NCBI GenBank assembly: GCA_017609525.1
Contig: JAFCDT010000002.1
Span: 4,885 to 68,884 of the forward strand
DNA: 64,000 nucleotides
Reading direction: 5' to 3'
Source: Candidatus Woesearchaeota archaeon
Lineage (GTDB): Archaea > Nanobdellota > Nanobdellia > SCGC-AAA011-G17 > JACPNG01
The notes under the pieces were generated by a model. That model was not told the origin of the DNA. It saw only the letters and a list, made by a program, of their open reading frames with translations, and searched no databases. Shown piece after piece: positions 9,559-60,563 of this stretch; position 1 is the first letter of the stretch; every line of letters begins with the position of its first letter. Position numbers and translations under genes: made by a program.

Positions 9559-9615
9559 AAAATTTACGAATTAATCAATATTATTTTTATTAAAATGGAG
9601 ATTTTAATAAGATAG

Positions 9616-41707: not shown

Positions 41708-42943
41708 TTGATGTTGGATTATTATTCTAGGCCAGATATTCAGGAAGAGATTTTTATAGCTTCTAGACACAGGGAAATTGGGGTGATGTATAAAGACAGG
41801 GGTTTTGGTAAAAGGCCAGATATCTTACAATTTAAAAGTGATGTAGGAGAGTTCGCTAAACAAGGGGCAAGTTCTTTTCATATTTCATTGGAAAGGTGGA
41901 AAAATCCTTTAGAGTTAAAGTCTGGTATGTCTAAAAAAGAGTTAGATGGCTTAAGAGAGGGGTGGGATTTTATAGCTGACATAGATTGTAAATATTTTGA
42001 ATTTTCAAAGATTGCTGCTTTTCTTTTAATTGAAGCTCTAAGATTTCACGAAATTGAGAATATAAGCTTAAAGTTTTCTGGGAATCGCTCTTTTCATGTT
42101 GGTGTTGCATTTGAAACCTTTCCTAAAGTGGTAAATAATATACAAATAAAGGATATTTTTCCACAAGGAGTTAGAATTATTGCTGATTACTTAAAATCAA
42201 TGATCAAAAATGAATTAAGGGAAAGAATATTAAAAATAAGTCCTGAAATGGGAGAAAATTTCGATCCTTTTTCAATCGTTGATATTGATTCTGTGGCTAT
42301 TTCAAGCAGGCATATGATTCGAGCACCTTATTCACTAAATGAAAAATCTGGATTGGTTAGTTTGCCCATAAAGATTGAGGAGTTAAAAAATTTTGAACTT
42401 AAACAGGCAAGAGTAGAAAATGTTAAAACCAAAGTCAGGTTTCTTGATAAAGGTGAACCAAATGAGGCTTCTAACCTACTTGTACAAGCTTTTGATTGGA
42501 ATATGAAAGCTAAAAGGAATGAGCCAGAAGTAATTGTTAAAAAAAGAGAATACGAAATTCCTAGCGTAGCGATTAAAGAAGAATTTTTTCCTCCATGTAT
42601 AAAACAAATATTAAATGGAATAGAAAAAGATGGAAGAAAACGGGCAGTATTTATTTTAATTAATTTTTTAGGACAAATGGGATGGGATTATAATGCTATA
42701 AAAAAGATTTTGTTAGAATGGAACAAGAAGAACTATGAAGAATTAAAAGAAGGGTATATTTTAAGTCAACTAAGCTGGCATAAAAGACAGGGTAAAAAAA
42801 TTTTGCCGCCTAATTGTGACAATAAGTCATACTACTTTGATATAGGTGTGAAGTGCGATGACCCCTTATGTAAAAAAGTGAAGAATCCTGTTAATTATGC
42901 CATGAGAAAGGTGAGCTTTAAAAAAAATATTAGGAAGAGATAG
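41708..42943 (+). CDS. priS: DNA primase small (catalytic) subunit PriS
   Basis: DFIADIDCKY (DxD), SGNRSFHVGV, RAPYSLNEKSGLVSLPI. C-terminal Cys cluster CDNKSYYFDIGVKCDDPLC. Confidence 0.7.
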   Translation: MMLDYYSRPDIQEEIFIASRHREIGVMYKDRGFGKRPDILQFKSDVGEFAKQGASSFHISLERWKNPLELKSGMSKKELDGLREGWDFIADIDCKYFEFSKIAAFLLIEALRFHEIENISLKFSGNRSFHVGVAFETFPKVVNNIQIKDIFPQGVRIIADYLKSMIKNELRERILKISPEMGENFDPFSIVDIDSVAISSRHMIRAPYSLNEKSGLVSLPIKIEELKNFELKQARVENVKTKVRFLDKGEPNEASNLLVQAFDWNMKAKRNEPEVIVKKREYEIPSVAIKEEFFPPCIKQILNGIEKDGRKRAVFILINFLGQMGWDYNAIKKILLEWNKKNYEELKEGYILSQLSWHKRQGKKILPPNCDNKSYYFDIGVKCDDPLCKKVKNPVNYAMRKVSFKKNIRKR

Positions 42944-45263
42944 CCATCCTATCCAATTGCTGGAAGAGTTGCTCTTCCTCTTTTGTGAGCTTTTTGAACT
43001 TATTCGTTTTTTTGTATCTTATTTCTGAAGCTTTTTTGATCCATTCATAATTTGGTTGTTCTTTTATTCTTATTTTGGGGAAGGCTTCTATTATTTGTTC
43101 TTTTTGGGTTTTGTATTTCATTTGTTCAAGTTTATTCATCTTTTCTTCTAATTCTATCTCCTGTTTATCTAATTCTGTTGTTTTTTGCGATATTTTTGGA
43201 GTTATTTCTGGTATGTTCAGGTGAAGTTTAACTTTTGGTTTTTCTATTTCTTTCAATGCTTCTTGCATTTGCTGTTGTCTCCTGAGGTTTTCAAGGTTAA
43301 CCATCTTGGACACTAGGCTAAGTTCCTGTTTTTCAAGAAGTTTATTTTGCAGAGTTTTGATTTGTTTAGGCGGAGTTATTTTAAGCTCATCTAAAGATAC
43401 CAATCTATCTGAAATAGGTGTACCCCTCAGTTTAGCAACCCTTATCATTTCCTGTAAAGATTTTTTGATTATTGGTGCTTGTTCTGATAATTTGTGTGCC
43501 CCATGTTCTTGGATTTGCTGTATGCTTGTTAGTAATGAACTTAAAGGATTAGTTAGGCGCGGAGTTTTTTTGATTTGTGGCAACATTACTCTTTCTGGTT
43601 TTAGGAGCTTGGGTTGAAATCTTTTTTGAATTTTATCTAAGAAGGCAAGTTCGGTTTTATGTAGTTGGTATATTCCCTCTCTTTGTTTTATATTTATTTC
43701 CTGAAGCATGTCTTGGATTTTGTGAATTATTTTTATTTCACCTTTTTTGAGTCTATAAAAGTAAAGTTCTATTGAATCTTTTAGATTTTCTAAATTCTGA
43801 TTAATTTTTTCAAGAGCTTTATATTCTTTTACAGTGGGGTACTGTAATTCTTCAATCTTTATCTGTTCTAGGTCTTTCTTTTTTTGTATTTCTATATTGA
43901 ATTTAAGATGTTTTCTTTTTTCATAATTTTTTTGTAATTGGTTTAGTTGATTTTTAATTGAGAATAGTTGCTGTTTAACCTTTGTTTTTTCTGCAGTGAG
44001 GGTTCCTTTTATTCCTTCTTTGAGTTTTTCTTCTTTTTCTATTGTTTTATGTTTTTTCTCTTTTAATTTTGTTATTTGGTTTTTTATTTTATTTGCTAGT
44101 TGTTTTTCTTTTTCATGAAGGTTATGGGCCCATTTATGCTCTATTTGGGCTAACTGGGGCAATGTAGTTTTGTAAATGTCTTTGATCCAGTTATGTTTGT
44201 ATTTAGAAAATAAAGATAGAGAAGATTTTATAGTTGAAAGATAGTGTTTTTCCTCTTTTGTAACTATCCCACCTTTTTCGGTTACTTGATTCAGTTGTTG
44301 GGTCAATAGATCCAGTTTTCTCGATTCCTCATTAAGTCGTTCTTGCTCTATTCTATTATAAAGATTTACCAAAGAGATTCCATACTCTTTTTCTTGCTCT
44401 ATTGGTAATTTATAATATAGCATCAATGCTTGAGAGTAAAGTTTCTTTGCTTCTGGAATTTGATGTATGTTTCTTGTTGCTTTTTTAAGTATTTTATTGA
44501 TCTTTCTTTTTTGGAAACATAGCGTAAACGGATTCAAAAACCGCAGTATTTCTGGTTTTTCTTCTTCTAGCCTTATCTTGAATCTTTTTATCTCTCTTTT
44601 TGATACCTTAGGAGCTTTTTTAAGTGGTTTGAGCCTTTCTTTTACTAATTGGATGAACTCTTTGAAACTTTTTTGCCTGCCTATTAATATTTGCTTTAAT
44701 GTTTCTATTCTGCGTTGGGGTTTTTTAACAGGAATACGTTTTTTTAATTCTGTAATCTCTATAAACTGGTCAGAAATTTCTTTTATGTTTTGTTTTGTGT
44801 ATGTCTTTCCACTATATTTATATTCTAAGATTTTTTCTATAATCTCTTTTAATTGTGGTTTCTTTTTTTCTAGTTTTGCTACTAATTCTTCATGCGTTAA
44901 TTCATGTTTTATTTCTAAAATATTGTAAGCATATTCTTTTATTAATCCTGACAGTTGTTTAAGCGCTGTTTCTTCAGAAAGAGAACGAAGTTTTTTTGCA
45001 AATATTAATGCTTCTTTGTGATAGTCTGTTTCTGGTAGTTCTTGTATTTCTTTTTTTAGTCTTTTCTTTTTGACGTTAATCTTGGGAATTTTAAATTTTG
45101 GTAAGTGGTCTTTGATAAAAATTACTAAAAATACAAGGAGGGAAAGCAAAATTAAAACTAAAGGTGCAAGAAAAAATGGGGAATACGATCTTGAGCCTAT
45201 AGTTATTTCTTGCGCATATGCAAAAGGCATAGTTAAAAGAAATATTGCGACCTCTTTTTTCAT
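42930..45263 (-). CDS. 777-aa signal-anchored coiled-coil protein (Lys/Glu/Gln-rich)
   Basis: N-terminus MKKEVAIFLLTMPFAYAQ (signal) then a TM (FFLAPLVLILLSLLVFLVIFI), followed by about 700 aa of heptad-like K/E/Q/L sequence. Converges on and overlaps priS by 14 nt. Confidence 0.5.
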   Translation of the reverse strand: MKKEVAIFLLTMPFAYAQEITIGSRSYSPFFLAPLVLILLSLLVFLVIFIKDHLPKFKIPKINVKKKRLKKEIQELPETDYHKEALIFAKKLRSLSEETALKQLSGLIKEYAYNILEIKHELTHEELVAKLEKKKPQLKEIIEKILEYKYSGKTYTKQNIKEISDQFIEITELKKRIPVKKPQRRIETLKQILIGRQKSFKEFIQLVKERLKPLKKAPKVSKREIKRFKIRLEEEKPEILRFLNPFTLCFQKRKINKILKKATRNIHQIPEAKKLYSQALMLYYKLPIEQEKEYGISLVNLYNRIEQERLNEESRKLDLLTQQLNQVTEKGGIVTKEEKHYLSTIKSSLSLFSKYKHNWIKDIYKTTLPQLAQIEHKWAHNLHEKEKQLANKIKNQITKLKEKKHKTIEKEEKLKEGIKGTLTAEKTKVKQQLFSIKNQLNQLQKNYEKRKHLKFNIEIQKKKDLEQIKIEELQYPTVKEYKALEKINQNLENLKDSIELYFYRLKKGEIKIIHKIQDMLQEINIKQREGIYQLHKTELAFLDKIQKRFQPKLLKPERVMLPQIKKTPRLTNPLSSLLTSIQQIQEHGAHKLSEQAPIIKKSLQEMIRVAKLRGTPISDRLVSLDELKITPPKQIKTLQNKLLEKQELSLVSKMVNLENLRRQQQMQEALKEIEKPKVKLHLNIPEITPKISQKTTELDKQEIELEEKMNKLEQMKYKTQKEQIIEAFPKIRIKEQPNYEWIKKASEIRYKKTNKFKKLTKEEEQLFQQLDRMAISS

Positions 45264-45298: not shown

Positions 45299-46291
45299 TC
45301 ATATTACTTTTAATGCTCTTTTGAGGTATCGCTTAGCAAGTTCTGTTTCATGTTCTGATAAAGCTCCCTCTTTTAGTTTGTTAAACAAGAAGAGGATCTC
45401 CTGTTTGAGGTTGCCCTCGATTCCCTCCTTGTGTAATTTGTTGTTTAATTCTGATAGGGAAGAATTAGCAGTAATGCCCAGTTTTTGGAAAAAAGTTTCA
45501 ATTAAATAGAAAATATGCGCGGATGCGGTTGCTTTAGGCATTTTTTTAATTTTTGTTAGGCCACTTTTTATTGTTTTTTCATGTTTTGTTTTTTTGAACT
45601 TTAATCCCTCAGTTGCTTTTTTGATTGAGAATGCAATAATAATCAGTATTAGTATGACAAGGGTGATCATAATTGGTTTTTTTACATTGAATTTTAATGC
45701 ACTTTCATCCACTGCTCCTTGTTTGTTTAATAGTTGGATGGAGTATGTGGGAACATCATCTTTAATGGAAACATTAATTTCTACTTCGTCATTGATTACA
45801 ACAAATAAATGATCTTCCAAAATTCTTGAATAAATTTTTTCTATTGGTTTTTCTTCTATCTCTCTTAGTAAGGGCAAAAGGTTGATGGTTTCATTAAACA
45901 TTTCCCTAGTTTTTGCAGAAGAAATTATTTTTGGATAATCCTGGATTAATTTTGTTATATTTACTACTTGTGATGCTTCATATAGCTCTTCTTTTTCAAT
46001 TAATACTGATTCATTAACTGCAAATATAACTGTTTCTGATCCAGTAAATGAATTTAAAGGAGTAATTGTAGCGGTTCCATCTTTTACTGTAACTTGAACA
46101 TTTTCTGTATAATTTATGAAATAATCGGCCTGTTTTGGAAGATGTTTATAAAGATTTATTACAACTTCGTTTGGAGAATGCAATCTTATTATTAATTTGT
46201 CTTCCAAGGCTAAGGAAAATGGAATTAATAATATAATGATTGAGATAATCCGTAAGATTTGCGGAATTTTTTTGTCTTTTTGTTTGGACAT
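45299..46291 (-). CDS. type-I membrane protein (signal peptide, ectodomain, one TM, basic cytoplasmic tail)
   Basis: ILRIISIIILLIPFSLA signal. TM ITLVILILIIIAFSI near residue 215. Co-directional, 35 nt upstream of the coiled-coil gene. Confidence 0.45.
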   Translation of the reverse strand: MSKQKDKKIPQILRIISIIILLIPFSLALEDKLIIRLHSPNEVVINLYKHLPKQADYFINYTENVQVTVKDGTATITPLNSFTGSETVIFAVNESVLIEKEELYEASQVVNITKLIQDYPKIISSAKTREMFNETINLLPLLREIEEKPIEKIYSRILEDHLFVVINDEVEINVSIKDDVPTYSIQLLNKQGAVDESALKFNVKKPIMITLVILILIIIAFSIKKATEGLKFKKTKHEKTIKSGLTKIKKMPKATASAHIFYLIETFFQKLGITANSSLSELNNKLHKEGIEGNLKQEILFLFNKLKEGALSEHETELAKRYLKRALKVI

Positions 46292-46378: not shown

Positions 46379-46792
46379 CTATCCAAGTTTCTTCTCTATT
46401 GTTCTCATTAATTTTTTAATTATCTTTTTAATATCTCCTAGCTTTCTTTTAATATAATCTTTTTCTACAAAGAAACCATCATAAGCTATTTTATTTCTCA
46501 CGTTTCTTAAATCATCAATGAGAAATGTTTCATAACCATCAAATTCTGCATAATTATTTTTGAGGTAGCCTATTAGTTTCTTATGGGCACCTTCTCCATA
46601 TGTTTTATAGCCGTCCAGCAAAAGGATCACACTTAATAGTTCCCTTATAATCTCATAGTATTCTTTAGTAACATTTGATGGAAATTTATTTATATCTATG
46701 CTTTTAACTAATTCTAGGGTAGTTTCCACCATTTTTAAGATAGATCTTGCTTTTTCTTTATCTGGTGTGACTTTAATTAAATTTTCTTCCAT
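46379..46792 (-). CDS. HEPN-domain protein (putative toxin-like partner of the adjacent nucleotidyltransferase)
   Basis: 137 aa, all-alpha, contains LRNVRNKIAYDG (Rx4-6 HEPN-like motif; His replaced by Tyr). Lies 1 nt downstream of the MNT gene. Confidence 0.5.
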   Translation of the reverse strand: MEENLIKVTPDKEKARSILKMVETTLELVKSIDINKFPSNVTKEYYEIIRELLSVILLLDGYKTYGEGAHKKLIGYLKNNYAEFDGYETFLIDDLRNVRNKIAYDGFFVEKDYIKRKLGDIKKIIKKLMRTIEKKLG

Positions 46793-46793
46793 T

Positions 46794-47333
46794 TTAAAAA
46801 ACCTTTAGGTACCCTTTTAGTATTATGCCATTAATTACATTATTTTTTAATTCTTTACTTAACTTCTTAAAATCTTCACTAAAAAAAAGATTTATTCTCC
46901 TATTTAATTTTTTTTCATATTGATTTAAATCTAATTTTTTTTCCTTGCATAATAAAAATAAATCCATATCGCTGTCCTTCAGATCCTCTCCTTTTGAAGC
47001 TGAACCAAAGAGAATAATGGTGTCGGGCATACAGCTGTCTAATAAATAATTCAATAAACCAGATTCCTCTATCCTTATGATATTATCTATTTTTTTAAGA
47101 AATATAAAATTCTCGTTATCTTTATTTGCATAGTAAATAGGATAACCATGTATCCTGTGTTTTTCTTTAACGATTAATCTTTCTTTTTCAAGCTCACCTA
47201 AATATCTCTTAACAGATGCTGGTGCAAGACTTATTTTTCTGCTTATCTCTCTAAGCTGAAAGCCTATGCCTTTAGGTAGCGGATCCTCAAAAAATATTTC
47301 CAAAATCCTATGCCTGTTATCTTTTTGTAACAT
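46794..47333 (-). CDS. winged-helix + minimal nucleotidyltransferase (MNT) protein
   Basis: N-terminal wHTH (ISRKISLAPASVKRYLGELEKERLIV) plus NTase signature ILFGSASKGEDLKDSDMDLFLL (GS...D-x-D). Confidence 0.65.
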   Translation of the reverse strand: MLQKDNRHRILEIFFEDPLPKGIGFQLREISRKISLAPASVKRYLGELEKERLIVKEKHRIHGYPIYYANKDNENFIFLKKIDNIIRIEESGLLNYLLDSCMPDTIILFGSASKGEDLKDSDMDLFLLCKEKKLDLNQYEKKLNRRINLFFSEDFKKLSKELKNNVINGIILKGYLKVF

Positions 47334-47748
47334 ATGTAATAATATTATTACAACTGTTATTTAAATATTGCTATCTTGAGGCATATATGTTTCACTAGTT
47401 ATAACTTTGTTTTTAACTATAAATGTGTAACTTTATGTTTTATAAATTAAATTTACTTAAATATCATGTTTATTTACTTATTTAGAGGATGGTTTTACTT
47501 ATATTATAAGTATTATTACTGATATTCTTTTATTTTATATATTATGTATATTTTATATTAATAGAAATATTTATATAGAAGTTAGTATACTAAATATATT
47601 GGTGAATTTGTGAATTTAACTGGATGAAATAACTACAATAAGAGTTAGTAAAAAAACTAAGTTTCGTTTAATGAAGCATGGTAAAATGATCGAAACAATG
47701 GATGATCTCATAAATAGAGTTCTTGATGCTTTTGAAAGAGAGGAGGAG

Positions 47749-47932
47749 AATGAAAAGTAAAAAGATTATTCTTATTTTAATTATTTTAGTGATTATTTTG
47801 GGTATTGGTTATATGATAATTAGTTTTAATGATTGGGAAAAAGAGGATATGGTTAAAGGAGACATAGTAAAAAATAACCTTGGAGAGGGTGGAGGGTATA
47901 GAATCCAAATCTTAGAAAAGGGGGCTGGTTGA
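47749..47932 (+). CDS. small single-TM protein heading the surface locus
   Basis: MKSKKIILILIILVIILGIGYMII then a Gly-rich tail. 4-nt overlap with the next gene. The start could also be 47723. Confidence 0.3.
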
Positions 47933-50844
47933 TGAAAGGAGGGATAGCAGTAATCATATTTATTGTACTTATTGGGTTAGTTGGTGCTATCGATGATTTG
48001 TTGGCTTTACAAGGAAAGGTTGATCAAAGCGGAACATTGGTTGAATCAGGAGATATTGTAGTAGAGATATGGGATGATGCGACTGCTGGAAATTTAATTT
48101 ATAATTCTACTTCGGATTTTAATGGCGCAATCCAGGGAGGCTTTTTTGATATTGTACTTGGTAGCGGAAGCAATAGCTTAACTTTGAATTTAAGTCAGAC
48201 TTACTATATGGATATAGCTATTGAAGGACAAGACATTGATTGGGGAGGTGATGAAAGGAGGCAGTTTCAGGCTACTGTCGGAAGGCCTTACTTTGAAGAA
48301 GAGGTTGTTTTGAATGATACACTATATACTAAAGATGGAAATGTTGGAATCAACGATGCAAATCCGGGCCATACTTTAAGTGTTGAGGGAAATTTAAGTT
48401 TGGATTCTTCTGTATATGCAAGTTGTACTGCACTGGAGACCGATTCTGCTGGAGGGATAGTCTGTGGAACTGATGATGCTGGAACTTCATCCACCTCATT
48501 TTGGGCAGGAAGTGCTGTAAATGAAATTTATAATGATACTACTGCTGGAGTTGGTATTGGAACTAATAATCCAAGTTATAAATTAGAGGTAAATTCTGTA
48601 GATAGTGCATTAAATGTAAGTGGGATGTTGTATGTTAATTCAAGTAGTGTTGGTATTGGGACTGACGTTCCTGGCAACCCTATATCTATAAGCGGAGTTA
48701 TTGGGATTACAGACAACATTCTTTTTGATAATGGTGTTGATTTCTTTTGGAAAAATTCTTCTGGGACTTCATGGAGCATAATAACATTGCACACAAATAA
48801 CAATCTTTATTTAACATCGCCCGCAGATGCAGATATGATATTTAGAGTTGGTGGATATACTGAAAGAATGAGAATAGACAGTTCAGGAAATGTAGGTATA
48901 GGAACAACAAGTCCAAATAAAACTCTTACAATATTAGGTAATTTGAGTTTGGCTGGTCCTGAGTATATTAGCTGTACTTCTTTGGAGACTGATGCTGAGG
49001 GAGGAATTAGGTGTGGGACTGATGACACTGGCTCTGGGGGAATAACTAATTGGGACAGCAATATTGCTTTCTTGAATGAAAGTCAAACTTTTGCTGAGAA
49101 TAATACCTTTGATGAGAATGTTGTTATTAATACGAGACTAGGAGTTGGAATCGATAACCCCGATGTTACCATGCATGTAAATTCTTCAGCAATTGGGGGA
49201 ATCAAGATCTCGGGAAATTTTCCTCTTTTACAACTACACGACTTCGCTACTGAGAATAAAATGAATATTGAACTTGGAAGAATTGATGCAGGAATGACTA
49301 TATATGATAATGGTTTTGGTGGTGTTGTCTTCTATATTGAAAATACTACAGGAAATGTTGGAATTGGAACTACTACTGTAAATAAAACATTAACAATATT
49401 GGGTAATTTAAGTTTGGCTGGTCCTGAGTATATTAGCTGTACTTCTTTGGAGACTGATGCTGAAGGAGGGATTAGGTGTGGGGCTGATGCTGGAGAGGGA
49501 GGAGGAGTATTTCTTGGATGGGACTCTAATCTGGTGTGGCATAATCAAAGCTTAAATTCAACAATAGCATTGTGGATTGAAAATGATACAACATTAACAG
49601 ACGCGCAAGTAGATGATTTTGCTTTCAATGATAATTCTTCATTGGATACAAGGTATGTAAGCAGGAGCGATTGGACTACAATAGATAACTATCCTTCTGC
49701 TTGTGCTGGAGGACAGTATGTAAGCGGGATAGGGGATACCTTAACTTGTTCAACACCTTCAGGAGGTACAACCTATTGGACAGGAAGTGGAAATTTAATT
49801 TATAATGATACTACTGCTGGAGTTGGAATTGGTACTAATAATCCAAGTTATAAATTAGAAGTAAATGATGCTTCAACAAGCTCTGTTAATCTTTCTGGAG
49901 CTTTATATGTTGATGGAAGCGAAAGGCTTATTGGTATTGGAACTGATAGTCCGTTTAAGGCACTAACGGTTTTGGGAAAGGCGGCTATTGGAGATTCAAT
50001 TAATAGCTCAAGAGCTTCAAGAGCCTTTAATGTTATTGATACTAATGCCGTAGTTAAAATTATGAGGATTAGTGATGATTCTATACTAGCAGCTCCTGCT
50101 TTTGAATTAATACATGAGAACGCTGATGGAGCAAGAGATGTCTATTGGGATTTCTTTGCTAGTGTTGATGGTATAAGTATGAGAGATAGACTGGCGGGAG
50201 AGCAAAGATCTCTCTTTATAGAGGCAGCCACACCAACCAATACCCTTTATTTATCAAGTGGTGGTAATGTAGGTATAAGAACAGCAAGTCCAAATAAAAC
50301 TCTTACAATATTAGGTAATTTGAGTTTGGCTGGTCCTGAGTATATTAGCTGTACTTCTTTGGAGACTGATGCTGAGGGAGGAATTAGGTGTGGAACAGAT
50401 GCTACTGGGACTTCATCCCCTTCATTTTGGGCAGGAAGTGCTGTAAATGAAATTTACAATGATACTACTGTTGGAGTTGGAATTGGTACTAATAATCCAA
50501 GTTATAAATTAGAAGTAAATTCTGTAGATAATGCTATGAATGTAAGTGGGATGTTGTATGTTAATTCAAGTAGTGTTGGTATTGGTGTTATCAACCCAAG
50601 ATATGAATTAGATTTGGATACAGGCACTATAAGGGCACATAGAGTTGTAGGTTCAAGTGGATTAAACTTAACTACAACAGGAAATGTGCCTGTTGTTATT
50701 TATACATCTGACACAGAAAGAATGAGAATTGATTCTTCTGGAAATGTAGGTATAGGAACTAATAATCCAGATTTTAAGTTAGATGTTATAGGAACAATAA
50801 AAGCTAATGATAGCATTAAAATAGGCACATGGTGGAAAGAGTAA
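47929..50844 (+). CDS. giant secreted tail-fibre-like repeat protein (N-terminal part; may be continuous with 50852-52657)
   Basis: Signal-anchor MMKGGIAVIIFIVLIGLVGA. More than 12 copies of the NVGIGTxxPxxxLxVxG fibre repeat. Three copies of LTILGNLSLAGPEYISCTSLETDAEGGIRCG. Long near-identical nucleotide repeats. Confidence 0.65.
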   Translation: MMKGGIAVIIFIVLIGLVGAIDDLLALQGKVDQSGTLVESGDIVVEIWDDATAGNLIYNSTSDFNGAIQGGFFDIVLGSGSNSLTLNLSQTYYMDIAIEGQDIDWGGDERRQFQATVGRPYFEEEVVLNDTLYTKDGNVGINDANPGHTLSVEGNLSLDSSVYASCTALETDSAGGIVCGTDDAGTSSTSFWAGSAVNEIYNDTTAGVGIGTNNPSYKLEVNSVDSALNVSGMLYVNSSSVGIGTDVPGNPISISGVIGITDNILFDNGVDFFWKNSSGTSWSIITLHTNNNLYLTSPADADMIFRVGGYTERMRIDSSGNVGIGTTSPNKTLTILGNLSLAGPEYISCTSLETDAEGGIRCGTDDTGSGGITNWDSNIAFLNESQTFAENNTFDENVVINTRLGVGIDNPDVTMHVNSSAIGGIKISGNFPLLQLHDFATENKMNIELGRIDAGMTIYDNGFGGVVFYIENTTGNVGIGTTTVNKTLTILGNLSLAGPEYISCTSLETDAEGGIRCGADAGEGGGVFLGWDSNLVWHNQSLNSTIALWIENDTTLTDAQVDDFAFNDNSSLDTRYVSRSDWTTIDNYPSACAGGQYVSGIGDTLTCSTPSGGTTYWTGSGNLIYNDTTAGVGIGTNNPSYKLEVNDASTSSVNLSGALYVDGSERLIGIGTDSPFKALTVLGKAAIGDSINSSRASRAFNVIDTNAVVKIMRISDDSILAAPAFELIHENADGARDVYWDFFASVDGISMRDRLAGEQRSLFIEAATPTNTLYLSSGGNVGIRTASPNKTLTILGNLSLAGPEYISCTSLETDAEGGIRCGTDATGTSSPSFWAGSAVNEIYNDTTVGVGIGTNNPSYKLEVNSVDNAMNVSGMLYVNSSSVGIGVINPRYELDLDTGTIRAHRVVGSSGLNLTTTGNVPVVIYTSDTERMRIDSSGNVGIGTNNPDFKLDVIGTIKANDSIKIGTWWKE
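48500..48660. repeat. intragenic repeat B, copy 1 (copy 2 at 50424-50585; partial copies near 49790 and 51000)
   Basis: TTTTGGGCAGGAAGTGCTGTAAATGAAATTTATAATGATACTACTGCTGGAGTTGG...AATTCTGTAGATAGTGCATTAAATGTAAGTGGGATGTTGTATGTTAATTCAAGTAGTGTTGGTATTGG. Confidence 0.75.
48895..49013. repeat. intragenic near-identical repeat A, copy 1 (other copies 49396-49483 and 50272-50392)
   Basis: GGTATAGGAACAACAAGTCCAAATAAAACTCTTACAATATTAGGTAATTTGAGTTTGGCTGGTCCTGAGTATATTAGCTGTACTTCTTTGGAGACTGATGCTGAGGGAGGAATTAGGTGTGG repeated almost exactly at 50272. Confidence 0.8.
50272..50392. repeat. intragenic repeat A, copy 3
   Basis: Identical by eye to 48895-49013 over about 120 nt. Copy 2 (49396-49483) is more diverged. 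Confidence 0.8.
50424..50585. repeat. intragenic repeat B, copy 2
   Basis: About 160 nt nearly identical to 48500-48660. Confidence 0.75.
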
Positions 50845-50851
50845 TACTGGG

Positions 50852-52657
50852 GTGATGATTGGCTCAAACAATGATTTTTCTGGATGGGGAAATCAGATAG
50901 ATGGAATGGATACAGATAATTCTGGTAGTTATTCTAGTTTATATTTAAATTACAGGGGTGGAAAGAAAATCATTTTAACAAATTCGAGTGATGGTAATGT
51001 AGGTATAGGAACAACAAATCCTAGTTATAAATTAGAAGTAAATTCTGTAGATAGTGCATTAAATGTAAGTGGAAATTTGTATGTTAATTCTAGTAATGTT
51101 GGTATAGGGTTTGACAATCCACAACATACCCTTCATATTGAAAACTCATCTGGAGATCTTGTAAGTGCAGTAAAGGTTACTGATGGAAGAAATAGTGTCT
51201 TTTTACAAGCAAGCAGAAGCGTGGGGGATGGGGGGGTTATAGGCACAAGATTGGTCTTGGATGATAATGGGGCGAGCGGTAAAAGATGGGATATTACTAC
51301 AGGAATTAAAGAGGGGGGTTTAGTATTTAGGAATAATGATGATGGAATTAACGCTTTGACATTAAATTCTTCTGGAGATGTAGGTATAGGAACAACAAGT
51401 CCAGATAGAAATTTAGAAGTATCAGGAACGGGAGCACAACAAATTGAAGTAGAATCTACATCAACCGACGCTGATTTAATTATTGATGCCAATACTGATT
51501 CAGATGCAAGAATTATTTTACAAGAAGCAGGAGTAAATTTAGGTTGGATAAGATTAGATGGAGATGATGGTAATAAAATAAAATTTCAGTATAGCACAAG
51601 TGCTACTGATGCAATGACTATCGACCAAACTGGAAAAATAGGTATAGGAACTGCTTTTCCTGGTGCTAAATTACATGTTTCTGAAACAAATAATTCTGCC
51701 TTTGATGCTGCAGTTGCTATTACTAGAACCGCCAGCGGAGGAGACTCTCTTGCATTCCTCAATATAGGTAGTAATTGGTACTTTGGAAGAGATAGTGCGG
51801 GAAACGCTTTTCAGGCTAGATACGCTAATTGGGACTTGACCGAAGACAGGTGGGAATCTACTTATACTGGTAGTATTGTGGGGCCTGTTTTTACCCAATA
51901 TGAGTACAATGGAGACATAAACTTTAAATCAATGGCTCCTCAATCCTTGACAGAAGGGGATGCTTTAAGTTTCGTAAATGTTATGACTTTGAAAGGGGGA
52001 GGAAATGTGGGTATAGTGACAACAAATCCACAGGCAAGATTAGAGGTTGATGATAATAATTATTGGTATAGTACAAAATATCCTGCGGTTGGTATTAAAA
52101 GCATAAGGCCTGCACTTGCTTTTTATGATGATAATTCAGAAGGTAAAAATGTAACAGTCCTTTATCAAGACCAGCAAACTTTCAAGATAGCTAAAACTGC
52201 ATTTACTACTAATGATTGGGGTTATGATGAGAAAATAGATGCATTAAAAATAGATTCAGACGCGAGCATAACATTTCCATATGTTTATTCTGATATTGTT
52301 GGTGGAACGAATAGAGATTTATATATAGACAATACAGGTTTGATAGGTTATGTTAGTTCTAGTATAAGATATAAAGAAAACATAAAAGATATTGGAAATG
52401 GTTCAGAAAAGCTTTATGATTTAAGACCCGTTTCCTTTAATTATAAAGGAGATAATTCCTCTAGCCTTCAATATGGTTTAATTGCTGAAGAAGTTGAAGA
52501 GGTTATGCCTGAGATAGTAAGCTATGATGAAGAAGGTAATCCAGAAACAGTAAGCTACAGTAAGCTAATAAGCCCAATGCTTAATGAGATCCAACAACTT
52601 AAGGAAGAGAATGAAGAATTAAAAAAGAGGATTGAAGTTTTAGAAAAAAAGATTTAG
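50852..52657 (+). CDS. tail-fibre-like repeat protein with a C-terminal intramolecular chaperone (peptidase S74-like) auto-processing domain
   Basis: NVGIGTTNP fibre repeats, then SSSIRYKENIKDIGNGSEKLYDLRPVSFNYKGDNSSSLQYGLIAEEVEEVMPEIVSYDEEGNPETVSYSKLISPMLNEIQQLKEENEELKKRIEVLEKKI. This matches the phage tail-spike/endosialidase C-terminal chaperone domain (Ser in S-x-R-x-K, LIAQEVEEV-like box, terminal coiled coil). No signal peptide of its own. Confidence 0.7.
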   Translation: MMIGSNNDFSGWGNQIDGMDTDNSGSYSSLYLNYRGGKKIILTNSSDGNVGIGTTNPSYKLEVNSVDSALNVSGNLYVNSSNVGIGFDNPQHTLHIENSSGDLVSAVKVTDGRNSVFLQASRSVGDGGVIGTRLVLDDNGASGKRWDITTGIKEGGLVFRNNDDGINALTLNSSGDVGIGTTSPDRNLEVSGTGAQQIEVESTSTDADLIIDANTDSDARIILQEAGVNLGWIRLDGDDGNKIKFQYSTSATDAMTIDQTGKIGIGTAFPGAKLHVSETNNSAFDAAVAITRTASGGDSLAFLNIGSNWYFGRDSAGNAFQARYANWDLTEDRWESTYTGSIVGPVFTQYEYNGDINFKSMAPQSLTEGDALSFVNVMTLKGGGNVGIVTTNPQARLEVDDNNYWYSTKYPAVGIKSIRPALAFYDDNSEGKNVTVLYQDQQTFKIAKTAFTTNDWGYDEKIDALKIDSDASITFPYVYSDIVGGTNRDLYIDNTGLIGYVSSSIRYKENIKDIGNGSEKLYDLRPVSFNYKGDNSSSLQYGLIAEEVEEVMPEIVSYDEEGNPETVSYSKLISPMLNEIQQLKEENEELKKRIEVLEKKI

Positions 52658-52762: not shown

Positions 52763-53248
52763 ATGGATAAATTAAATAAAAAAGAGGGAATTAGTTCTGA
52801 TAAAGACTTTGAAAAATTAAAAAAAATATTAAGCTCCTTAGAAATAAAGTATAAGAAAACTAAAAAAGAAATTCTCAATTTGATTGAAGAAATGGAAACA
52901 ATGCCTGTTTCAATCTTTAATAACACTAAGCTTTCCATACCAGAATCAATTGTTAAGTATTTTGTTGAAGAAAAAAATTACAAATATAGTAAGATTTCTA
53001 AGATCATCAAACGGGACCAAAGGACTGTTTGGGGCTTTTATAACAAAGCTAGGAAGAAATTTCCTAAAAAGTTGAAAATTAATGATTCTAAATTAATTCC
53101 TGTTTCAATTTTTAGTAAAAAAAGCTTGCTAGAAACTATTGCGATTTATCTTAAGAAAAATTTTGATTTAAGTTACCATGATGTTGCTGTTTTACTTAAT
53201 AGAGATGATAGAACGATTTGGACTGTTTGTAATAGGAAGAAAAAATGA
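52763..53248 (+). CDS. tandem helix-turn-helix DNA-binding protein (two sigma-r4/LuxR-like HTH units), candidate locus regulator
   Basis: Internal duplication: IPESIVKYFVEEKNYKYSKISKIIKRDQRTVWGFYNKARKKF and IPVSIFSKKSLLETIAIYLKKNFDLSYHDVAVLLNRDDRTIWTVCNRKKK. 4-nt overlap with the 1070-aa gene. Confidence 0.5.
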   Translation: MDKLNKKEGISSDKDFEKLKKILSSLEIKYKKTKKEILNLIEEMETMPVSIFNNTKLSIPESIVKYFVEEKNYKYSKISKIIKRDQRTVWGFYNKARKKFPKKLKINDSKLIPVSIFSKKSLLETIAIYLKKNFDLSYHDVAVLLNRDDRTIWTVCNRKKK

Positions 53249-56200
53249 ACGAAAGTATCAAGGCAATTATGATTAGTATAATGGTTTTCGTAGTGTTAAG
53301 TGGGCTAATTTATGGTGCCTTTATCTTTACGAGTTATACGGGTTTTGCTGTTAAGGAAATAGTAAGCATTCCTTATGAAGAAGGATTTGAAAATGGAACC
53401 ATAAAGGTAAGTTTAAATGAAACTATTTGGGAGTTTGAAGTTCAAGAACTTGTTAAAGATAAAGATATCATTTTGAATTTAACTAGTCTGGAAACTAATG
53501 AATATGGAGAATTATATATCGACATCATTGTTAATGGAACTGTTGTTGAAAGTAAAAAAGTGATTATTGAAGGAAAGGAAGAAAAACCTTTTGTTACAGA
53601 AGAAGTTAATGAGACAGTTGAAGAAAAATTTTCTGAAGCTAATAATAGTGCTTTTGGAGAAATAAATGTGTCTGTTGAGGAAATTAACAAAACTATTGGG
53701 CTGGTTAATAAGACAGTTGAAGAATCTGATAATGAGATTGTAAATCAAACAGAACCACTAAGAAAGATCAATAAAACCTTAGAAATAAATGAAACGGTTG
53801 AAGAAGTTAATATTACTCTACCAAAAAATATTACTGAAAATTTGAATGAATCTAAGGTAGTAGATAAAGTTTCTATTGTAGAAGAGACAGAAGAAGTAAT
53901 ACAACCTTTAGTTGTGATAAATCAGCCAGTTAGGTGGGTTAAAAAGGTTAGATTAGAGAATTATTCAAATAGTCTTACTGTTGAGGTTCCTAAAGAAGCA
54001 AAGAACATTAGTGTTAAAAAAATTGAAGATGGAAAGGGAAGAGCAATTGAAGAGAAAAAAATCAAGGTTAAAGAAAAAGGAGAAATTAAAGACTTAGAAG
54101 AATTTAATACAATAACTGCGCAGGCGGTCGCTGTTGGTTCTGGCAAACCTTATTTAAGAAACTTTTTCGACTTGATTTCGAAATTTATTAATTCTTTACT
54201 CAAAAAACCCGCAGTAACTGGATTAGTTACTGGTGAAGATAAAGGAACTAAAGAGGTTATTATTGGAGAGTCTGTTAAGGAAGTAGAAATCAAGTATGAA
54301 ATTCCTGGTCCAGGTGTAATAGAATCAGACAAGGCAGATGGTAAGATCATAACAATATTTTCTGAGATTCACTATGAGAATATATTAGCATATACAGAAG
54401 TAGAAGAAACGGATCCAGAGGGTATAAAACTTTACTGGAAACAAAATGGTTCTAGTATTTTGGTTGAAAATGTGGATTACCTAGATGAAAATCAAAATGG
54501 ATTGATAGATAAAATCCAGTGGATTGTTCCACATTTAAGCAATCAGACATATGAGATTGATTTAATTGTTTTAAATGTTCAGAGTTATCCTTATGTTGGG
54601 GGCAATTGGACAGTAAAATTTAACACTACCGGAATAGCAAATTTAACGATAAGTGCATTTAATGGTACTACTTTTGAAGATTATCATAATGATAGCGTGA
54701 TTCATGATTTAGAATTTTTAGAGTTAAGATGTGGCTCTGAATTAATTGCTAATAATCTTACTGCTAATAATAGTTTATTTGTTTCAGATTATAGTTGTAC
54801 AAGTACTAGCTTTGAAACAAGTAAAGTTTTAACACCAGGTGACCACTATATTAAATTTGAGTTTGGACCAATAACTAAATATGCAAAAAACCTTGCTGGT
54901 GAATTTGGAGGGTTGGCTGGAGGAGGAAATGCTAGTGGTACAATGAATTTAATTACCGGTGCCTTTGGTTTTACTGGTTCTAACGAAACAACTGGATCAT
55001 ATACCACTATGCTGCATGGACTACTGAGTGTAGGAAAAAACATAACTTCTGGCGTTTATACATTAGGTTTAGGTTATATTTACATGCTTGATATTGTTCA
55101 GAAGGTTTTTGTTAACCTTGTTAGCCCCGCAGAAGGGGAAACAATTGCTACTGCTACTTTTATTTATATTCCAAACGCTGATGAAATACACAGTTGTAGT
55201 TTGTATGGTAATTGGACCACTGGTTGGCATGCCAATCAAACTGATTATTCTATAGCATTAAGTTCCACTAACCAGTTTACACTAGGTGAATTAGAAGAAG
55301 GCAGGTTTCAGTGGAATGTTATGTGCAACAATAGCCAGGGGGATTTTTTTGCAGAAAACAATTATACTTTTGTACTAAACCGTGTACCAAGTGTGCCAGA
55401 CTTGAATGAACCTTTAAATAACAGCATGTGGAATAGTAGCATTCCTGAACTTAATTGGTCCAACAGCACAGATACAACAGGAGATGATATATTTTATTAT
55501 TTGGAAATTGATGATTCAATAGCTTTTGATAGTGTGGATTATGCAAATAGTACAATAAAAGAAAATGTAAATACAACATCGGATCTTCCTAGCGGACTAG
55601 TTGCAGGAAACTATTGGTGGAGGGTTTTAGCTTATGATGGCAACGCAAACTCTTCATGGTCAGAGGTAAGAAATTTATCAATAAGATTTAATGATGCTCC
55701 TAGTGTTCCTGAATTATTTTTGCCATATAACGATACACAAATAACAGATAGGACTCCTACTTTTAGCTGGAGCAATTCTACTGATCCAGATGGAGATACT
55801 ATCACATATCACATTCAAATAGATGGAGTTATAGACTTTTCAAGTCCTGAGGTGGATGGTTTTGATGTAGGGGGCATTGCTGAAACTGCAAATACAACAA
55901 ACTGGACTGCAACATCTGATTTGCAACAATTAGACACAGAGTACTTTTGGAGGGTTAGAGCGTATGATGGAATTGCTTATAGCAATTGGTCTGAAATAAG
56001 GAATTTTTCGATTGCCAGTACAGTGATTATCACTCTTCCAACAGACAGCATAAACTTTACTGTTGCTAATCCAGGGGATAGTGACGACACTAGTGATGAT
56101 TCCCCTACTCCGATTGTAATAAGAAATAGCGGAAATACTGGTGCTGATGTTAATATCAGTTTGGCCTCTGGGAGCACTGGTCTTTGGGCAAGCAAAGTAA

Positions 56201-56457
56201 GTCCTACGAGTTATTTTCAATATAAAATAGATAATAAGACAGGAGAGGAGGGGGCTTTTAACTGGTCGGATTCTATTACTGGATGGACCGATGTTGATGT
56301 TGCTAACTCAAGTTACAAAATTAGAAATCTTAACTATAGTGATTCTACTGATGAAGCAGAGTTAGACATTAAAATTATTGTGCCAAATGATGAACCTTCT
56401 GGGGAAAAGTCGGCAAGTTTGGTTATAACGGGGGCGATTACAAGTGAAATCCCATAA
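53245..56457 (+). CDS. 1070-aa signal-anchored glycoprotein with many N-x-S/T sequons, tandem repeats of about 95 aa (FSWSNSTDPDGD...YFWRVRAYDG) and a conserved C-terminal EPSGEK...TG motif
   Basis: N-terminal TM MISIMVFVVLSGLIYGAFIF. More than 50 N-x-S/T sequons. Three clear repeats (NWSNSTDTTGDDIFYYLEID...YWWRVLAYDG; FSWSNSTDPDGDTITYHIQID...YFWRVRAYDG; plus a degenerate copy). C-terminus IVPNDEPSGEKSASLVITGAITSEIP. Confidence 0.65.
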   Translation: MNESIKAIMISIMVFVVLSGLIYGAFIFTSYTGFAVKEIVSIPYEEGFENGTIKVSLNETIWEFEVQELVKDKDIILNLTSLETNEYGELYIDIIVNGTVVESKKVIIEGKEEKPFVTEEVNETVEEKFSEANNSAFGEINVSVEEINKTIGLVNKTVEESDNEIVNQTEPLRKINKTLEINETVEEVNITLPKNITENLNESKVVDKVSIVEETEEVIQPLVVINQPVRWVKKVRLENYSNSLTVEVPKEAKNISVKKIEDGKGRAIEEKKIKVKEKGEIKDLEEFNTITAQAVAVGSGKPYLRNFFDLISKFINSLLKKPAVTGLVTGEDKGTKEVIIGESVKEVEIKYEIPGPGVIESDKADGKIITIFSEIHYENILAYTEVEETDPEGIKLYWKQNGSSILVENVDYLDENQNGLIDKIQWIVPHLSNQTYEIDLIVLNVQSYPYVGGNWTVKFNTTGIANLTISAFNGTTFEDYHNDSVIHDLEFLELRCGSELIANNLTANNSLFVSDYSCTSTSFETSKVLTPGDHYIKFEFGPITKYAKNLAGEFGGLAGGGNASGTMNLITGAFGFTGSNETTGSYTTMLHGLLSVGKNITSGVYTLGLGYIYMLDIVQKVFVNLVSPAEGETIATATFIYIPNADEIHSCSLYGNWTTGWHANQTDYSIALSSTNQFTLGELEEGRFQWNVMCNNSQGDFFAENNYTFVLNRVPSVPDLNEPLNNSMWNSSIPELNWSNSTDTTGDDIFYYLEIDDSIAFDSVDYANSTIKENVNTTSDLPSGLVAGNYWWRVLAYDGNANSSWSEVRNLSIRFNDAPSVPELFLPYNDTQITDRTPTFSWSNSTDPDGDTITYHIQIDGVIDFSSPEVDGFDVGGIAETANTTNWTATSDLQQLDTEYFWRVRAYDGIAYSNWSEIRNFSIASTVIITLPTDSINFTVANPGDSDDTSDDSPTPIVIRNSGNTGADVNISLASGSTGLWASKVSPTSYFQYKIDNKTGEEGAFNWSDSITGWTDVDVANSSYKIRNLNYSDSTDEAELDIKIIVPNDEPSGEKSASLVITGAITSEIP

Positions 56458-56926
56458 ATGGTTTGTGATCCTGAATATCGCGTTTGTGATTTTAATAGTT
56501 GGAACAATCTTTTATATCACTCCAAGGGGGCCGGAAGGAAAAATCTACGATCGGCGTCCCTTGTTTAGTTGGACTGGTTATGCAACTAAATTGATAATCG
56601 ATGATAATCCGGATTTTTCCAGTCCGCAAGTCATTGACCTAAAAGGAAGAGATTATCAATTTAAAGAAAATCTTGATTTGGGGGATTATTTCTGGAAATT
56701 AAAGGGGCTTTATGAAACCAAACCCAAGAAATTTAATTTAGAGTCTGAGGTGGCAATAAAACTGTACAAGACTGAATCTTTGAATCTAGAAAACGATGGC
56801 AATACTCGACTGAATGTTACTATTGAAGAACATGATTCTGGGGTGACTGGTCAGATTGTTCTTGATTTGGGGGAAATTGCTGTTGTGAAAGAAAATTCGG
56901 ACATTAAAGCAAAGCAAGATGAATAA
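56444..56926 (+). CDS. single-domain membrane-anchored paralog carrying one copy of the FSW...YFWK repeat
   Basis: TM FVILNIAFVILIVGTIFYI, then RPLFSWTGYATKLIIDDNPDFSSPQVIDL...LGDYFWKLKG. Confidence 0.5.
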   Translation: MKSHKWFVILNIAFVILIVGTIFYITPRGPEGKIYDRRPLFSWTGYATKLIIDDNPDFSSPQVIDLKGRDYQFKENLDLGDYFWKLKGLYETKPKKFNLESEVAIKLYKTESLNLENDGNTRLNVTIEEHDSGVTGQIVLDLGEIAVVKENSDIKAKQDE

Positions 56927-58118
56927 GAAATTATGGTTGGGAATTGTAGCAATTTTGATAGTTTCAAGTATCAATGTTTTTGCAATAGGAATTAGTCCAG
57001 GTAAAACAATTTTAGATTTTTCGCCAAACACCCAACAAGACATTGTATTCAGGGTGCTAAATAATGAAAAAAAAGAGATGGATGTTTTGTTATATGTGGG
57101 AGAAAGTGAATTAAGTGATATTGTTACCCTCTATGATTCTATTATTAGCTTTAAATCTGAAGAAGAAAGTAAAGAATTCAGATACACTGTGAATTTTCCT
57201 GACAAAATTGACACTCCCGGAGATCATGAAATACAAATTATTGCTTTAGAGATTCCCAAAGGTACAAAAGGAAATAATTTTGTTGGTGCTACTGCTGCTG
57301 TTGCAACCATCCTAAAAGTCAGGGTCCCATATCCTGGAAAATATGCGAAAATTGAATTAGCGGTTTCTGATGCTAAAGTCGGAGAAGAAATGACTTTTGT
57401 TGTTCCTGTCTGGAATCTGGGAACAGATGATATTATTAATGCCCAAGCAAGTATTGATATCTTGGGGCCTACTAATGAAAAAATTGCTACGCTTAGTACA
57501 GAAAAAAAAGGGATTAAATCCAAAAGCAAGAGCGAATTAGTTGCAAAATGGGAAGCAGATACAAATGCCGGCAAGTATTTTGCTGTGGCTACTTTAACAT
57601 ATGATGGAAAAACTGCAAGGGCTGAAAAAATTTTTGCCTTAGGTGATCTGTTTATTGATATTATTGATATTAATGTTAAAAACTTTAATTTGGGTGAAGT
57701 AGCTAAATTTAATATTTTAGTTGAAAATAAATGGAATGATTTAATCACAAATATTGTTCCAGAAATTAAGATTAGTGATAAGAATGGCAATGAAGTTGCT
57801 GTATTTAAAGGAGCAGGAGCGGATGTAGATGCTTTAAGTAAAGCAGAATTAAATGCATATTGGGATACTGAAGGAGTTAAAGAAGGAGTTTATGATGGTA
57901 AAGCAATTTTGCATTATTCTGGAAAGACTACAGAAAAACAACTTAAAACAGATATTAGTTTAAATGGAATTAAGGTTTCATTTTTGGGACAGACCGCTCA
58001 AGTTGTTAGGGGAGGAGCAGGTGTTGGAAGGAACTCTGTATTAGTGATTTTAGTTATGATCTTAATTATTATAAATGTGGGTTGGTTTATATATATCAAA
58101 AGGATGAAAAGAGGATAG
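56919..58118 (+). CDS. CARDB-like surface protein with signal peptide and C-terminal TM plus KRMKRG tail (paralog of 59008-60129)
   Basis: Signal WLGIVAILIVSSINVFA. Repeated Ig-like units starting PYPGKYAKIELAVSDAKVGEEMTFVVPVWNLG. C-terminal VLVILVMILIIINVGWFIYIKRMKRG. Confidence 0.55.
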   Translation: MNKKLWLGIVAILIVSSINVFAIGISPGKTILDFSPNTQQDIVFRVLNNEKKEMDVLLYVGESELSDIVTLYDSIISFKSEEESKEFRYTVNFPDKIDTPGDHEIQIIALEIPKGTKGNNFVGATAAVATILKVRVPYPGKYAKIELAVSDAKVGEEMTFVVPVWNLGTDDIINAQASIDILGPTNEKIATLSTEKKGIKSKSKSELVAKWEADTNAGKYFAVATLTYDGKTARAEKIFALGDLFIDIIDINVKNFNLGEVAKFNILVENKWNDLITNIVPEIKISDKNGNEVAVFKGAGADVDALSKAELNAYWDTEGVKEGVYDGKAILHYSGKTTEKQLKTDISLNGIKVSFLGQTAQVVRGGAGVGRNSVLVILVMILIIINVGWFIYIKRMKRG

Positions 58119-58156
58119 AAAAACTTAAAAATATTGAATATCAGATAGGATACAGA

Positions 58157-58369
58157 ATGGTCAAAAAAAGGGGCAAAAAAAAGGTTTCTAAAAATTTGTT
58201 AGCCATACTTTTAGTTATTGCAATTTTGTTATCTGTTGTAGGGACCTATATGGCTATTTACAATGCCAATGTTGTAAGGGTAATTGAGATTGAGCCCGCT
58301 TCCTTGGGAAAGGTCGGGGTTTATGTTAACAATCCAGAACTCCCCGCAGGAGATGAAGGTGGCGGATAA
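58157..58369 (+). CDS. small N-terminally anchored protein (pilin-like candidate)
   Basis: MVKKRGKKKVSKNLLAILLVIAILLSVVGTYMAI: basic N-terminus plus one hydrophobic helix, 70 aa. The six-frame ORF 58082-58369 extends it upstream of the likely start. Confidence 0.35.
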   Translation: MVKKRGKKKVSKNLLAILLVIAILLSVVGTYMAIYNANVVRVIEIEPASLGKVGVYVNNPELPAGDEGGG

Positions 58370-58979: not shown

Positions 58980-59007
58980 TTATTTAGAAAGTTTTATATA
59001 AAAAGTT

Positions 59008-60524: not shown

Positions 60525-60563
60525 AAATCTATATAAATAACCATACTCTAATTTTATCTAACA

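Follow-up and report, generated by a model that had tools for sequence, protein, structure and literature searches.

A candidate archaeal MAT-like fibre capped by an S74 chaperone domain and encoded across a broken reading frame in a Woesearchaeota-like chromosome

We describe here a candidate surface-fibre gene in a 64,000-nt stretch of DNA, referred to throughout as the window, from a Candidatus Woesearchaeota archaeon (assembly GCA_017609525.1, contig JAFCDT010000002.1, positions 4,885 to 68,884 of the forward strand). At the locus, two long open reading frames (ORFs), ORF1 and ORF2, follow one another on the same strand in different frames, with a gene for a small membrane protein directly upstream and a run of genes for large secreted or surface proteins downstream. 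Between them, the two ORFs carry a putative signal peptide, a long series of fibre modules and, at the extreme C-terminus, a Peptidase_S74 domain (Table 1). An initial annotation, made from the letters of the sequence and a list of its ORFs, had pointed to a phage tail-spike-type chaperone domain on a giant fibre-repeat protein, and had suggested either a cellular surface fibre or the remnant of a tailed provirus.

Table 1. Features of the fibre locus (positions in the window).
Feature	Position	Strand	Content and basis
Small single-pass membrane protein, 69 aa	47723..47932	+	ORF list; stop overlaps the fibre ATG (TGATG)
ORF1, N-terminal 971 aa of the fibre	47929..50844	+	Signal peptide (~47932-47988), beta-sandwich N-domain (~110 aa), fibre modules including four Cys-loop modules
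Frame-break zone	50825..50851	+	Three-frame translation; pairwise alignment with L002
ORF2, C-terminal 601 aa of the fibre	50852..52657	+	Fibre modules, then S74
62-nt segment present in the window, deleted in L002	50879..50940	+	Pairwise alignment; P0121 C-terminus out of frame
Modules similar to Bdellovibrio MAT beta-helix fibres	51254..51787	+	phmmer against the PDB
S74 intramolecular chaperone/autoprotease domain	52358..52654	+	Predicted nucleophile Ser503, general base Lys508, then C-terminal helix; Pfam, alignment, PDB profile, AlphaFold2, Foldseek

The assignment of the ORF2 C-terminus to the S74 intramolecular-chaperone domain is secure, because sequence, catalytic residues and predicted fold agree. 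In the Pfam search, ORF2 matches Peptidase_S74 (PF13884) at E = 3.5e-15 and 56.4 bits, above the family's gathering score of 22 bits, and the match spans residues 503-556 and covers 57 of the 58 model positions. It opens on S-S-I-R-Y-K, in which Ser503 (52358-52360) is followed five residues downstream by Lys508 (52373-52375), the spacing of an SDxxxK-type dyad. When the last 175 residues of ORF2 are aligned with 35 homologous C-termini, the only invariant columns among the 36 sequences are Ser503, Lys508 and one glycine. A profile built from this alignment retrieves from the PDB the phage S16 protein gp37 (6f45, 1.9e-21), the tail fibre 8jov (2.8e-17), T5 pb1 (8hqz, 6.8e-13) and the ICA domain of MyRF (7dc3, 5.1e-12). 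An AlphaFold2 monomer model of the same 175 residues has a predicted local distance difference test score of 86-98 (means of 10-residue blocks) from residue 81 to the end and terminates in a long helix. With this model as query, Foldseek ranks the MyRF ICA domain (7dc3) first in the PDB at E 3.6e-5, followed at non-significant E values (~0.09-0.12) by 4uw8 (T5 pb1 with its chaperone), 3gw6 (K1F endosialidase) and 3gud (GA-1). Model, Foldseek ranking and PDB profile all point to the chaperone-domain fold, a small beta/alpha core followed by a long C-terminal helix. The chaperone signature that the initial annotation had noticed at the end of ORF2 is thereby borne out in both family score and fold, and the Ser-Lys dyad that it had anticipated is present and invariant. 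ORF1 has no Pfam match, and a search of NCBIfam gave no match for either ORF.

The two ORFs make up a single gene of ~1,585 aa, because a near-identical strain contig reads through the junction and the composite frame is intact. In the three-frame translation, the frame of ORF2 becomes open at 50825, before that of ORF1 ends in a stop at 50842-50844. Over 13.5 kb, identity between the window and the strain contig, L002, is 99.6-99.8%, and pairwise alignment places 29 extra nucleotides in it, CTTACTAATGCATCGATATTAACAGTTGG, between window positions 50829 and 50830. Reinserted into the window, these 29 nt yield a 4,758-nt ORF of 1,585 aa with zero internal stops. Database gene calls are in keeping with this: ORF1 corresponds to P0005 (970 aa), and the second member of its 90%-identity cluster, P0121 (1,008 aa, from L002), runs from ORF1 sequence directly into ORF2 sequence (...KLDVIGTIKANDSIKIGTLTNASILTVGGGKSNTGVMIGSNNDF), the junction reading common to P0121 and L002 being ...IKIGTLTNASILTVGGGKSNTGVMIGSNNDF. 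In both length and pattern, the junction stretch is like any other single fibre module, and several homologues align with it essentially ungapped. L002 is itself frameshifted, separately, by the loss of the 62-nt segment listed in Table 1, which leaves the C-terminus of P0121 out of frame; the 29-nt site and the 62-nt segment together form an indel hotspot of ~110 nt. Two other accounts of the junction were set aside. A programmed +1 frameshift at AAA-G (50837-50840), which would give ...TWWK-SNTGV..., is unnecessary given the 29 additional in-frame bases of L002, and no stimulatory element is evident. Equally, ORF2 is a poor candidate for an independent gene, having no signal peptide and spending its first ~50 residues on finishing a module begun in ORF1.

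The surroundings of the break bear the signature of a repeated, multi-strain, recombining region of the kind that assemblers handle poorly. Internal direct repeats of 73-272 nt at 85-95% identity run through the fibre gene, and three of the four related contigs terminate within it, two of them (L001 and L002) at the same window-equivalent position, 51491. The segment 51363-51491 of the window matches L001 13130-13258 over 129 nt at 98.4% identity, with alignable L001 flanks at only 74%, which reflects either a recent exchange of a fibre module between lineages or cross-talk between genomes in the assembly graph. The frame-disrupting indels may be real variants or assembly artefacts. A metagenome scan for the junction was swamped by the common peptide DTERMRID and so did not discriminate between the alleles: it yielded 80 distant relatives (mostly 25-44% identical over the best segment) and no near-identical contig; an exact-protein look-up found neither the window's ORF2 nor its nucleotidyltransferase neighbour on record.

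The reconstructed protein has a domain order of signal peptide, beta-sandwich N-domain, 17 VGIGTxxPxxxL loop motifs and S74. It begins MKGGIAVIIFIVLIGLVGA/IDD (the slash marks the putative cleavage site), a hydrophobic start that, judged by eye, has the appearance of a Sec signal peptide cleaved at a small-residue site and not of the signal anchor proposed by the initial annotation; at the equivalent site the orthologue on contig L093 reads LVSA/SDD. Along the composite sequence there are 17 copies of the loop pattern [VILM]G[IVL]x[T..]xx[PV]xxx[LMI], against a mean of 0.05 and a maximum of 2 in residue shuffles, and a Cys-loop module, C[TS]xLETDxxGGxxCG, is present in four copies in the shaft. 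The more than 1,400 aa of upstream fibre repeats that had been proposed are therefore upheld as repeats and as part of one large protein, but not as a single ORF in this assembly, where the frames differ. Residues 135-312 of ORF2 match two PDB entries in a phmmer search, 8OND (E = 1.4e-10) and 8OJN (E = 4.8e-5), which are the mosaic adhesive trimer (MAT) fibres Bd2133 and Bd3182, respectively, of Bdellovibrio bacteriovorus (PMC10769870). Members of the MAT family have a signal peptide, a conserved beta-rich N-domain and a trimeric beta-helical shaft with the capping-loop motif V-G-G/N-pi-x-x-P-x-x-x-L, and end in either an S74 domain with SDxxxK or a non-S74 tip (PMC10769870). The NVGIGTxxPxxKL repeat of the initial annotation is this capping-loop motif, and the archaeal shaft combines the repeated motif with homology to solved fibres. 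Base composition proved unusable as a sign of transfer: at 0.37, the G+C fraction of the fibre gene exceeds that of its immediate flanks (0.27-0.30) and is close to that of the ribosomal operon (0.34-0.35).

The fibre is best read as an archaeal MAT-like, S74-capped trimeric adhesin, because its body matches the solved fibres Bd2133 and Bd3182. Such S74-capped architecture is already known in cells from the Bdellovibrio MATs, where the fibres are surface-exposed, Bd3182 self-cleaves at its S74 serine and Bd2439 attaches to glycans of the prey (Caulton et al., 2024; PMC10769870). Like the archaeal protein, the solved MATs (S74-bearing Bd3182, 8OJN/8ONB/8ONC; and Bd2133, 8OND, whose tip is of the NS74 type) are cellular and not virion proteins. 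They share with it a signal peptide (putative in the archaeon), an N-domain rich in beta structure, though homology between the two N-domains was not established, a long capping-loop shaft, an S74 domain with a Ser...Lys dyad (in the S74 subgroup), relatives that swap tips, and, for ORF2, direct sequence similarity to both solved fibres; contact with other cells is a part of the Bdellovibrio lifestyle and is presumed to be so for the archaeon. There are also differences. The archaeal host has no outer membrane and a different envelope, and the mode of anchoring must therefore differ. The archaeal fibre is also longer (~1,585 aa, where the Bd2133 construct ends at residue 1,031), has the nucleophile motif SSxxxK in place of SDxxxK, includes extra Cys-loop modules and is accompanied by a conserved upstream small membrane-protein partner. 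Moreover, one fibre is encoded in this window, as against 21 in the Bdellovibrio genome.

Comparison with phage proteins and with the eukaryotic MyRF places the C-terminal domain in a wider context. The phage chaperones of K1F (3GW6), GA-1 (3GUD), T5 pb1 (4UW8/8HQZ) and S16 gp37 (6F45) belong to the same Pfam family, have the fold predicted here and the Ser/Lys dyad, and form the very end of trimeric beta-helical fibres, where they finish in a long terminal helix. They are virion parts encoded among structural genes, whereas the archaeal fibre has a putative signal peptide and housekeeping and surface-protein neighbours. The kinship with phage tail spikes that was first proposed accordingly stands for the S74 family and its fold, but the closest characterised relatives of the protein include the cellular Bdellovibrio MATs (PMC10769870). 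The best structural match of the modelled C-terminus, the MyRF ICA domain (7DC3), shows the S74 module at work in a non-viral protein. Far from being a surface fibre, MyRF is a transcription factor bound to membranes, and its cleavage frees its N-terminal part.

A protein search for homologues returned 1,224, and several of these have different ends on related shafts. In P0002, the same N-domain and a module of the ORF2 type are accompanied by a borderline Peptidase_G2 match (24.5 bits against a threshold of 25) at the end, in place of S74. P0016 (contig L094) combines C1q with S74 and adjoins DUF835, CARDB and PKD genes; P0006, from a Woesearchaeota metagenome-assembled genome (MAG), is without S74 and adjoins a 2,986-aa LamG protein. 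S74 and non-S74 tips thus occur on related shafts (P0002, P0016, P0006), as in the MATs, and modules and tips appear to have been exchanged between related genomes. An S74-bearing homologue on a further archaeal contig (P0007, L005) adjoins PCNA and a fused-type primase. In a species-representative genome collection that does not include the present genome, two loci were found, in a Bacteriovoracaceae MAG (L003) and a Bryobacterales MAG (L004). The Bacteriovoracaceae fibre (CALHBF010000011.1; 1,698 aa) has an S74 end (E 3.3e-15) and shares the ORF2 module with ...NDWGYDEK..., but it is bacterial, differs in its N-terminal region and matches at only 29% identity.

The window is a stretch of ordinary archaeal chromosome. 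It encodes the large and small RFC subunits, IleRS, an MCM with an archaeal winged helix, RPA, Topo VI B and A, MetRS, an operon of e-type ribosomal proteins, SecY, prefoldin and a fused PriS-PriL primase, in agreement with the archaeal character that had been attributed to it from MCM, Topo VI and ribosomal proteins. The named relatives of the MCM (64-68% identity) all come from MAGs labelled 'Nanoarchaeota', 'Candidatus Nanoarchaeia' or 'Candidatus Woesearchaeota', and the organism is therefore a DPANN archaeon. The fibre gene and its upstream small membrane-protein gene occupy the same site in the four assemblies represented by the window, L001, L002 and L093, although the L093 DNA is only 77% identical to the window. 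In L001, L002 and L093, the order before the fibre is ribosomal proteins, SecY, EMC3-like, L34e, prefoldin, primase and at least two minus-strand genes. Orthologues of the small membrane protein lie directly upstream of the fibre at L093 15149-15328, L002 9819-10001 and L001 9636-10004; across the four loci these proteins measure 59-122 aa and share a conserved ...NNLGEGGGYRIQILE... tail. The 69-aa protein of the window has no Pfam match above the cut-off and no PHROG match, and it may anchor the base of the fibre or act as its partner.

Taken together, these features suggest that the gene encodes a secreted, homotrimeric surface fibre of the phage-tail-fibre/Bdellovibrio MAT type, specified by one gene of ~1,585 aa in a Nanoarchaeota/Woesearchaeota-like DPANN archaeon, a reading to which we would give a probability of roughly 0.6. 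The chain would be exported by the Sec pathway through the N-terminal signal peptide recognised by eye. By analogy with K1F, T5 and Bd3182, three S74 domains would then associate through their long terminal helices and template the registered folding of an intertwined beta-helical shaft. Once the shaft had folded, Ser1487 of the composite protein (Ser503 of ORF2), activated by Lys1492 (Lys508), would cut the chain, as the conserved dyad suggests, releasing a chaperone fragment of ~11 kDa (predicted length 99 aa) and leaving a stable fibre with its distal tip exposed. At the scale of Bd2133, in which 370 aa account for 150 Å (PMC10769870), the mature chain of ~1,466 aa would measure roughly 60 nm. 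More speculatively, the N-terminal beta-sandwich domain might fix the fibre to the cell surface by its base, perhaps together with the co-transcribed small membrane protein, and the fibre might bind to a structure on the surface of another cell, the likeliest such cell being the host of what is presumed to be an episymbiont. Binding of a host cell, though speculation, is the most economical reading of its role, given the precedent of the Bdellovibrio fibres and the reliance of DPANN archaea in culture on host contact (PMC11329633).

Several observations weigh against this reading. The gene is broken as assembled, and the copy in this window may be non-functional, because ORF1 is without a C-terminal cap and ORF2 without an export signal. 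Of the related contigs, L001 and L002 are the two that extend this far into the gene, and in both the frame is broken as well, though elsewhere, which could mean decay and not use. The residue after the nucleophile is a serine where the SDxxxK consensus has an aspartate, and this column varies across the 36 aligned homologues. No homology was established between the N-domain of the archaeal fibre and that of the Bdellovibrio MATs (~130 aa). The status of the organism as an episymbiont is presumed, and contact between fibre and host would follow by analogy.

The broken frame raises the possibility of a decaying pseudogene, formerly functional, with genuine, fixed out-of-frame deletions and no fibre produced. 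The 29-nt deletion that splits the gene in the window, the different out-of-frame deletion of 62 nt only ~50 nt away in near-identical L002, and the changed frame of the more distant L001 copy are what such decay would produce. The rest of the gene does not look decayed, however: apart from the indels, its halves are fully open over 971 and 601 codons, and the repeats, the dyad and the signal peptide are preserved. Each of the two strains has a single lesion of its own, and combining their sequences in a simple way restores an open gene; an intact allele therefore either existed very recently or persists in the population. Added to this, the ending of three of four contigs within the gene, two at a single coordinate, is characteristic of assembly problems where a region is repeated and several strains are present. 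We accordingly regard decay as unlikely, though it is an explanation to be taken seriously. A role other than host binding is somewhat harder still to credit, namely that the fibre is real but serves as an adhesin for particles or biofilms, as a within-species aggregation factor, or as a decoy or receptor in interactions with viruses. No ligand is identifiable from the sequence, S74-capped fibres occur in non-predatory bacteria (the Bryobacterales MAG L004, and P0093, whose contig is annotated as Acidobacteriota), and selection by viruses would likewise be expected to yield mosaic surface proteins that vary fast. Against such roles, the only cellular relatives studied experimentally serve the binding of a predator to other cells (PMC10769870), one of the two matches in the genome collection is the 1,698-aa S74 fibre of a Bacteriovoracaceae predator that shares the ORF2 module, and cultivated DPANN archaea need host contact, according to PMC11329633.

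That the gene is the leftover tail fibre of an integrated tailed virus, or the fibre of a tailocin or extracellular contractile injection system, and not a cellular adhesin, is very improbable. An S74 cap combined with this loop motif is typical of phage tail fibres, and a tblastn search of GenBank phages found cyanophage and pelagiphage tail fibres that are 24-29% identical over 70-89% of ORF2. The identity of phage fibres nonetheless stays at or below 29% where most of ORF2 is covered and at or below 43% over the S74 domain alone, and in scans of viral contigs ORF2 matched in its S74 domain only (again at no more than 43%), ORF1 matched nothing, and no close relative of the fibre body appeared. 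Pfam searches of ~35 larger ORFs across the 64-kb window gave no match to capsid, portal, terminase, tail, sheath, baseplate or integrase, and PHROGs gave nothing in ten neighbouring proteins of unknown function; the absence of other virion genes remarked on from the start thus holds for the ORFs scanned, and the locus has none of the neighbouring virion or particle genes or integration hallmarks of a virus, tailocin or injection system. The site beside the ribosomal-protein/SecY/primase block is constant in the four assemblies, including the one with 77% DNA identity, and a Sec-type signal peptide, as recognised by eye, is not needed by virion fibres. The provirus remnant offered as an alternative by the initial annotation is therefore unsupported, because virion genes are absent from the ORFs scanned, the locus is conserved and the fibre body has no close relative on the viral contigs scanned.

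Returning to the cellular MAT-like fibre, a more far-reaching version can be formulated, in which Woesearchaeota-like DPANN archaea use a chromosomally fixed, module-swapping, S74-matured MAT-type fibre as a host-recognition organelle anchored by the small membrane protein, and the deletions clustered within ~110 nt in co-occurring strains are real variants that switch off the distal, tip-bearing half as a phase-variation-like or escape mechanism. We consider this combination of claims doubtful, and put it forward as a conjecture.

The genes around the fibre have features of their own. Just 3' of it (52763-53248, +) lies a gene for a 161-aa protein with two tandem helix-turn-helix (HTH)-like repeats (weak Sigma70_r4_2 and HTH_23 matches); a homologue at L094 5935-6465 (42% identical, E 7e-24) adjoins another archaeal cluster of S74 fibre and surface genes, and the protein may regulate surface-protein genes. 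Further downstream, the run of large secreted or surface proteins (53245-62321, +) includes a protein of 1,070 aa with Ig_Rha78A_N/fn3-like domains, a 585-aa He_PIG/Big_9/PKD protein, a weakly matching WxL-interacting-like protein and several ORFs without a family. The fibre locus is therefore part of a cell-surface gene cluster, given these large Ig/fn3/PKD/He_PIG proteins.

On the upstream side, in the window as in L001 and L002, a nucleotidyltransferase (Polbeta/NTP_transf_2, with an N-terminal winged HTH) and a 137-aa partner (46379-47333, -) separate the fibre operon from the conserved minus-strand genes; the syntenic L093 lacks both, and the pair looks like an inserted nucleotidyltransferase-type, toxin-antitoxin-like module. 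A 63-nt tandem duplication in L002 (~9560-9690) is represented by a single copy in the window (47547-47609, intergenic, upstream of the small membrane-protein gene). The minus-strand genes encode a 777-aa, Lys/Glu-rich and probably coiled-coil protein with an N-terminal hydrophobic segment (42930-45263, -) and a 330-aa membrane protein (45299-46291, -), neither of which has a Pfam or PHROG match and both of which are kept in all four syntenic loci. The fused primase (41708-42943, +; 411 aa) joins small- and large-subunit domains and is consistent with a DPANN/Nanoarchaeota-type replication apparatus. Farther away, beside the Topo VI genes, a free-standing 360-aa LAGLIDADG_3 protein (15665-16747, -) may be homing-endonuclease-like. 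A scan for sigma-70 promoters and terminators gave results at background level, the sigma-70 model being uninformative for an archaeon.

The occurrence of an S74/MAT fibre in archaeal cells appears undescribed in the searchable literature. Full-text searches returned no paper combining DPANN with S74, and no such cellular fibre is apparent in titles and abstracts on Woesearchaeota with 'tail fiber' or on Peptidase_S74 with archaea, or in passages of PMC11329633. Overall, the result is a solid annotation with a plausible biological role, tempered by the broken frame in this assembly; should the gene be decaying, or the frameshifts artefactual, the finding shrinks to a correct domain annotation.

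Little is known of the way in which DPANN archaea locate and keep hold of their hosts, and the Woesearchaeota-type lineages are almost entirely uncultured. The locus provides a concrete, sequence-defined candidate for such an adhesin, with a precedent of solved structure in a bacterial predator and an expected biochemical read-out, namely SDS-stable trimers and the release of a ~11 kDa fragment that needs one serine and one lysine. It extends to the cellular genes of archaea a phage-derived S74/MAT architecture already found in viruses, bacteria and the eukaryotic MyRF, and its mosaic tips on a conserved locus would make the gene a useful metagenome marker of host-range diversification.

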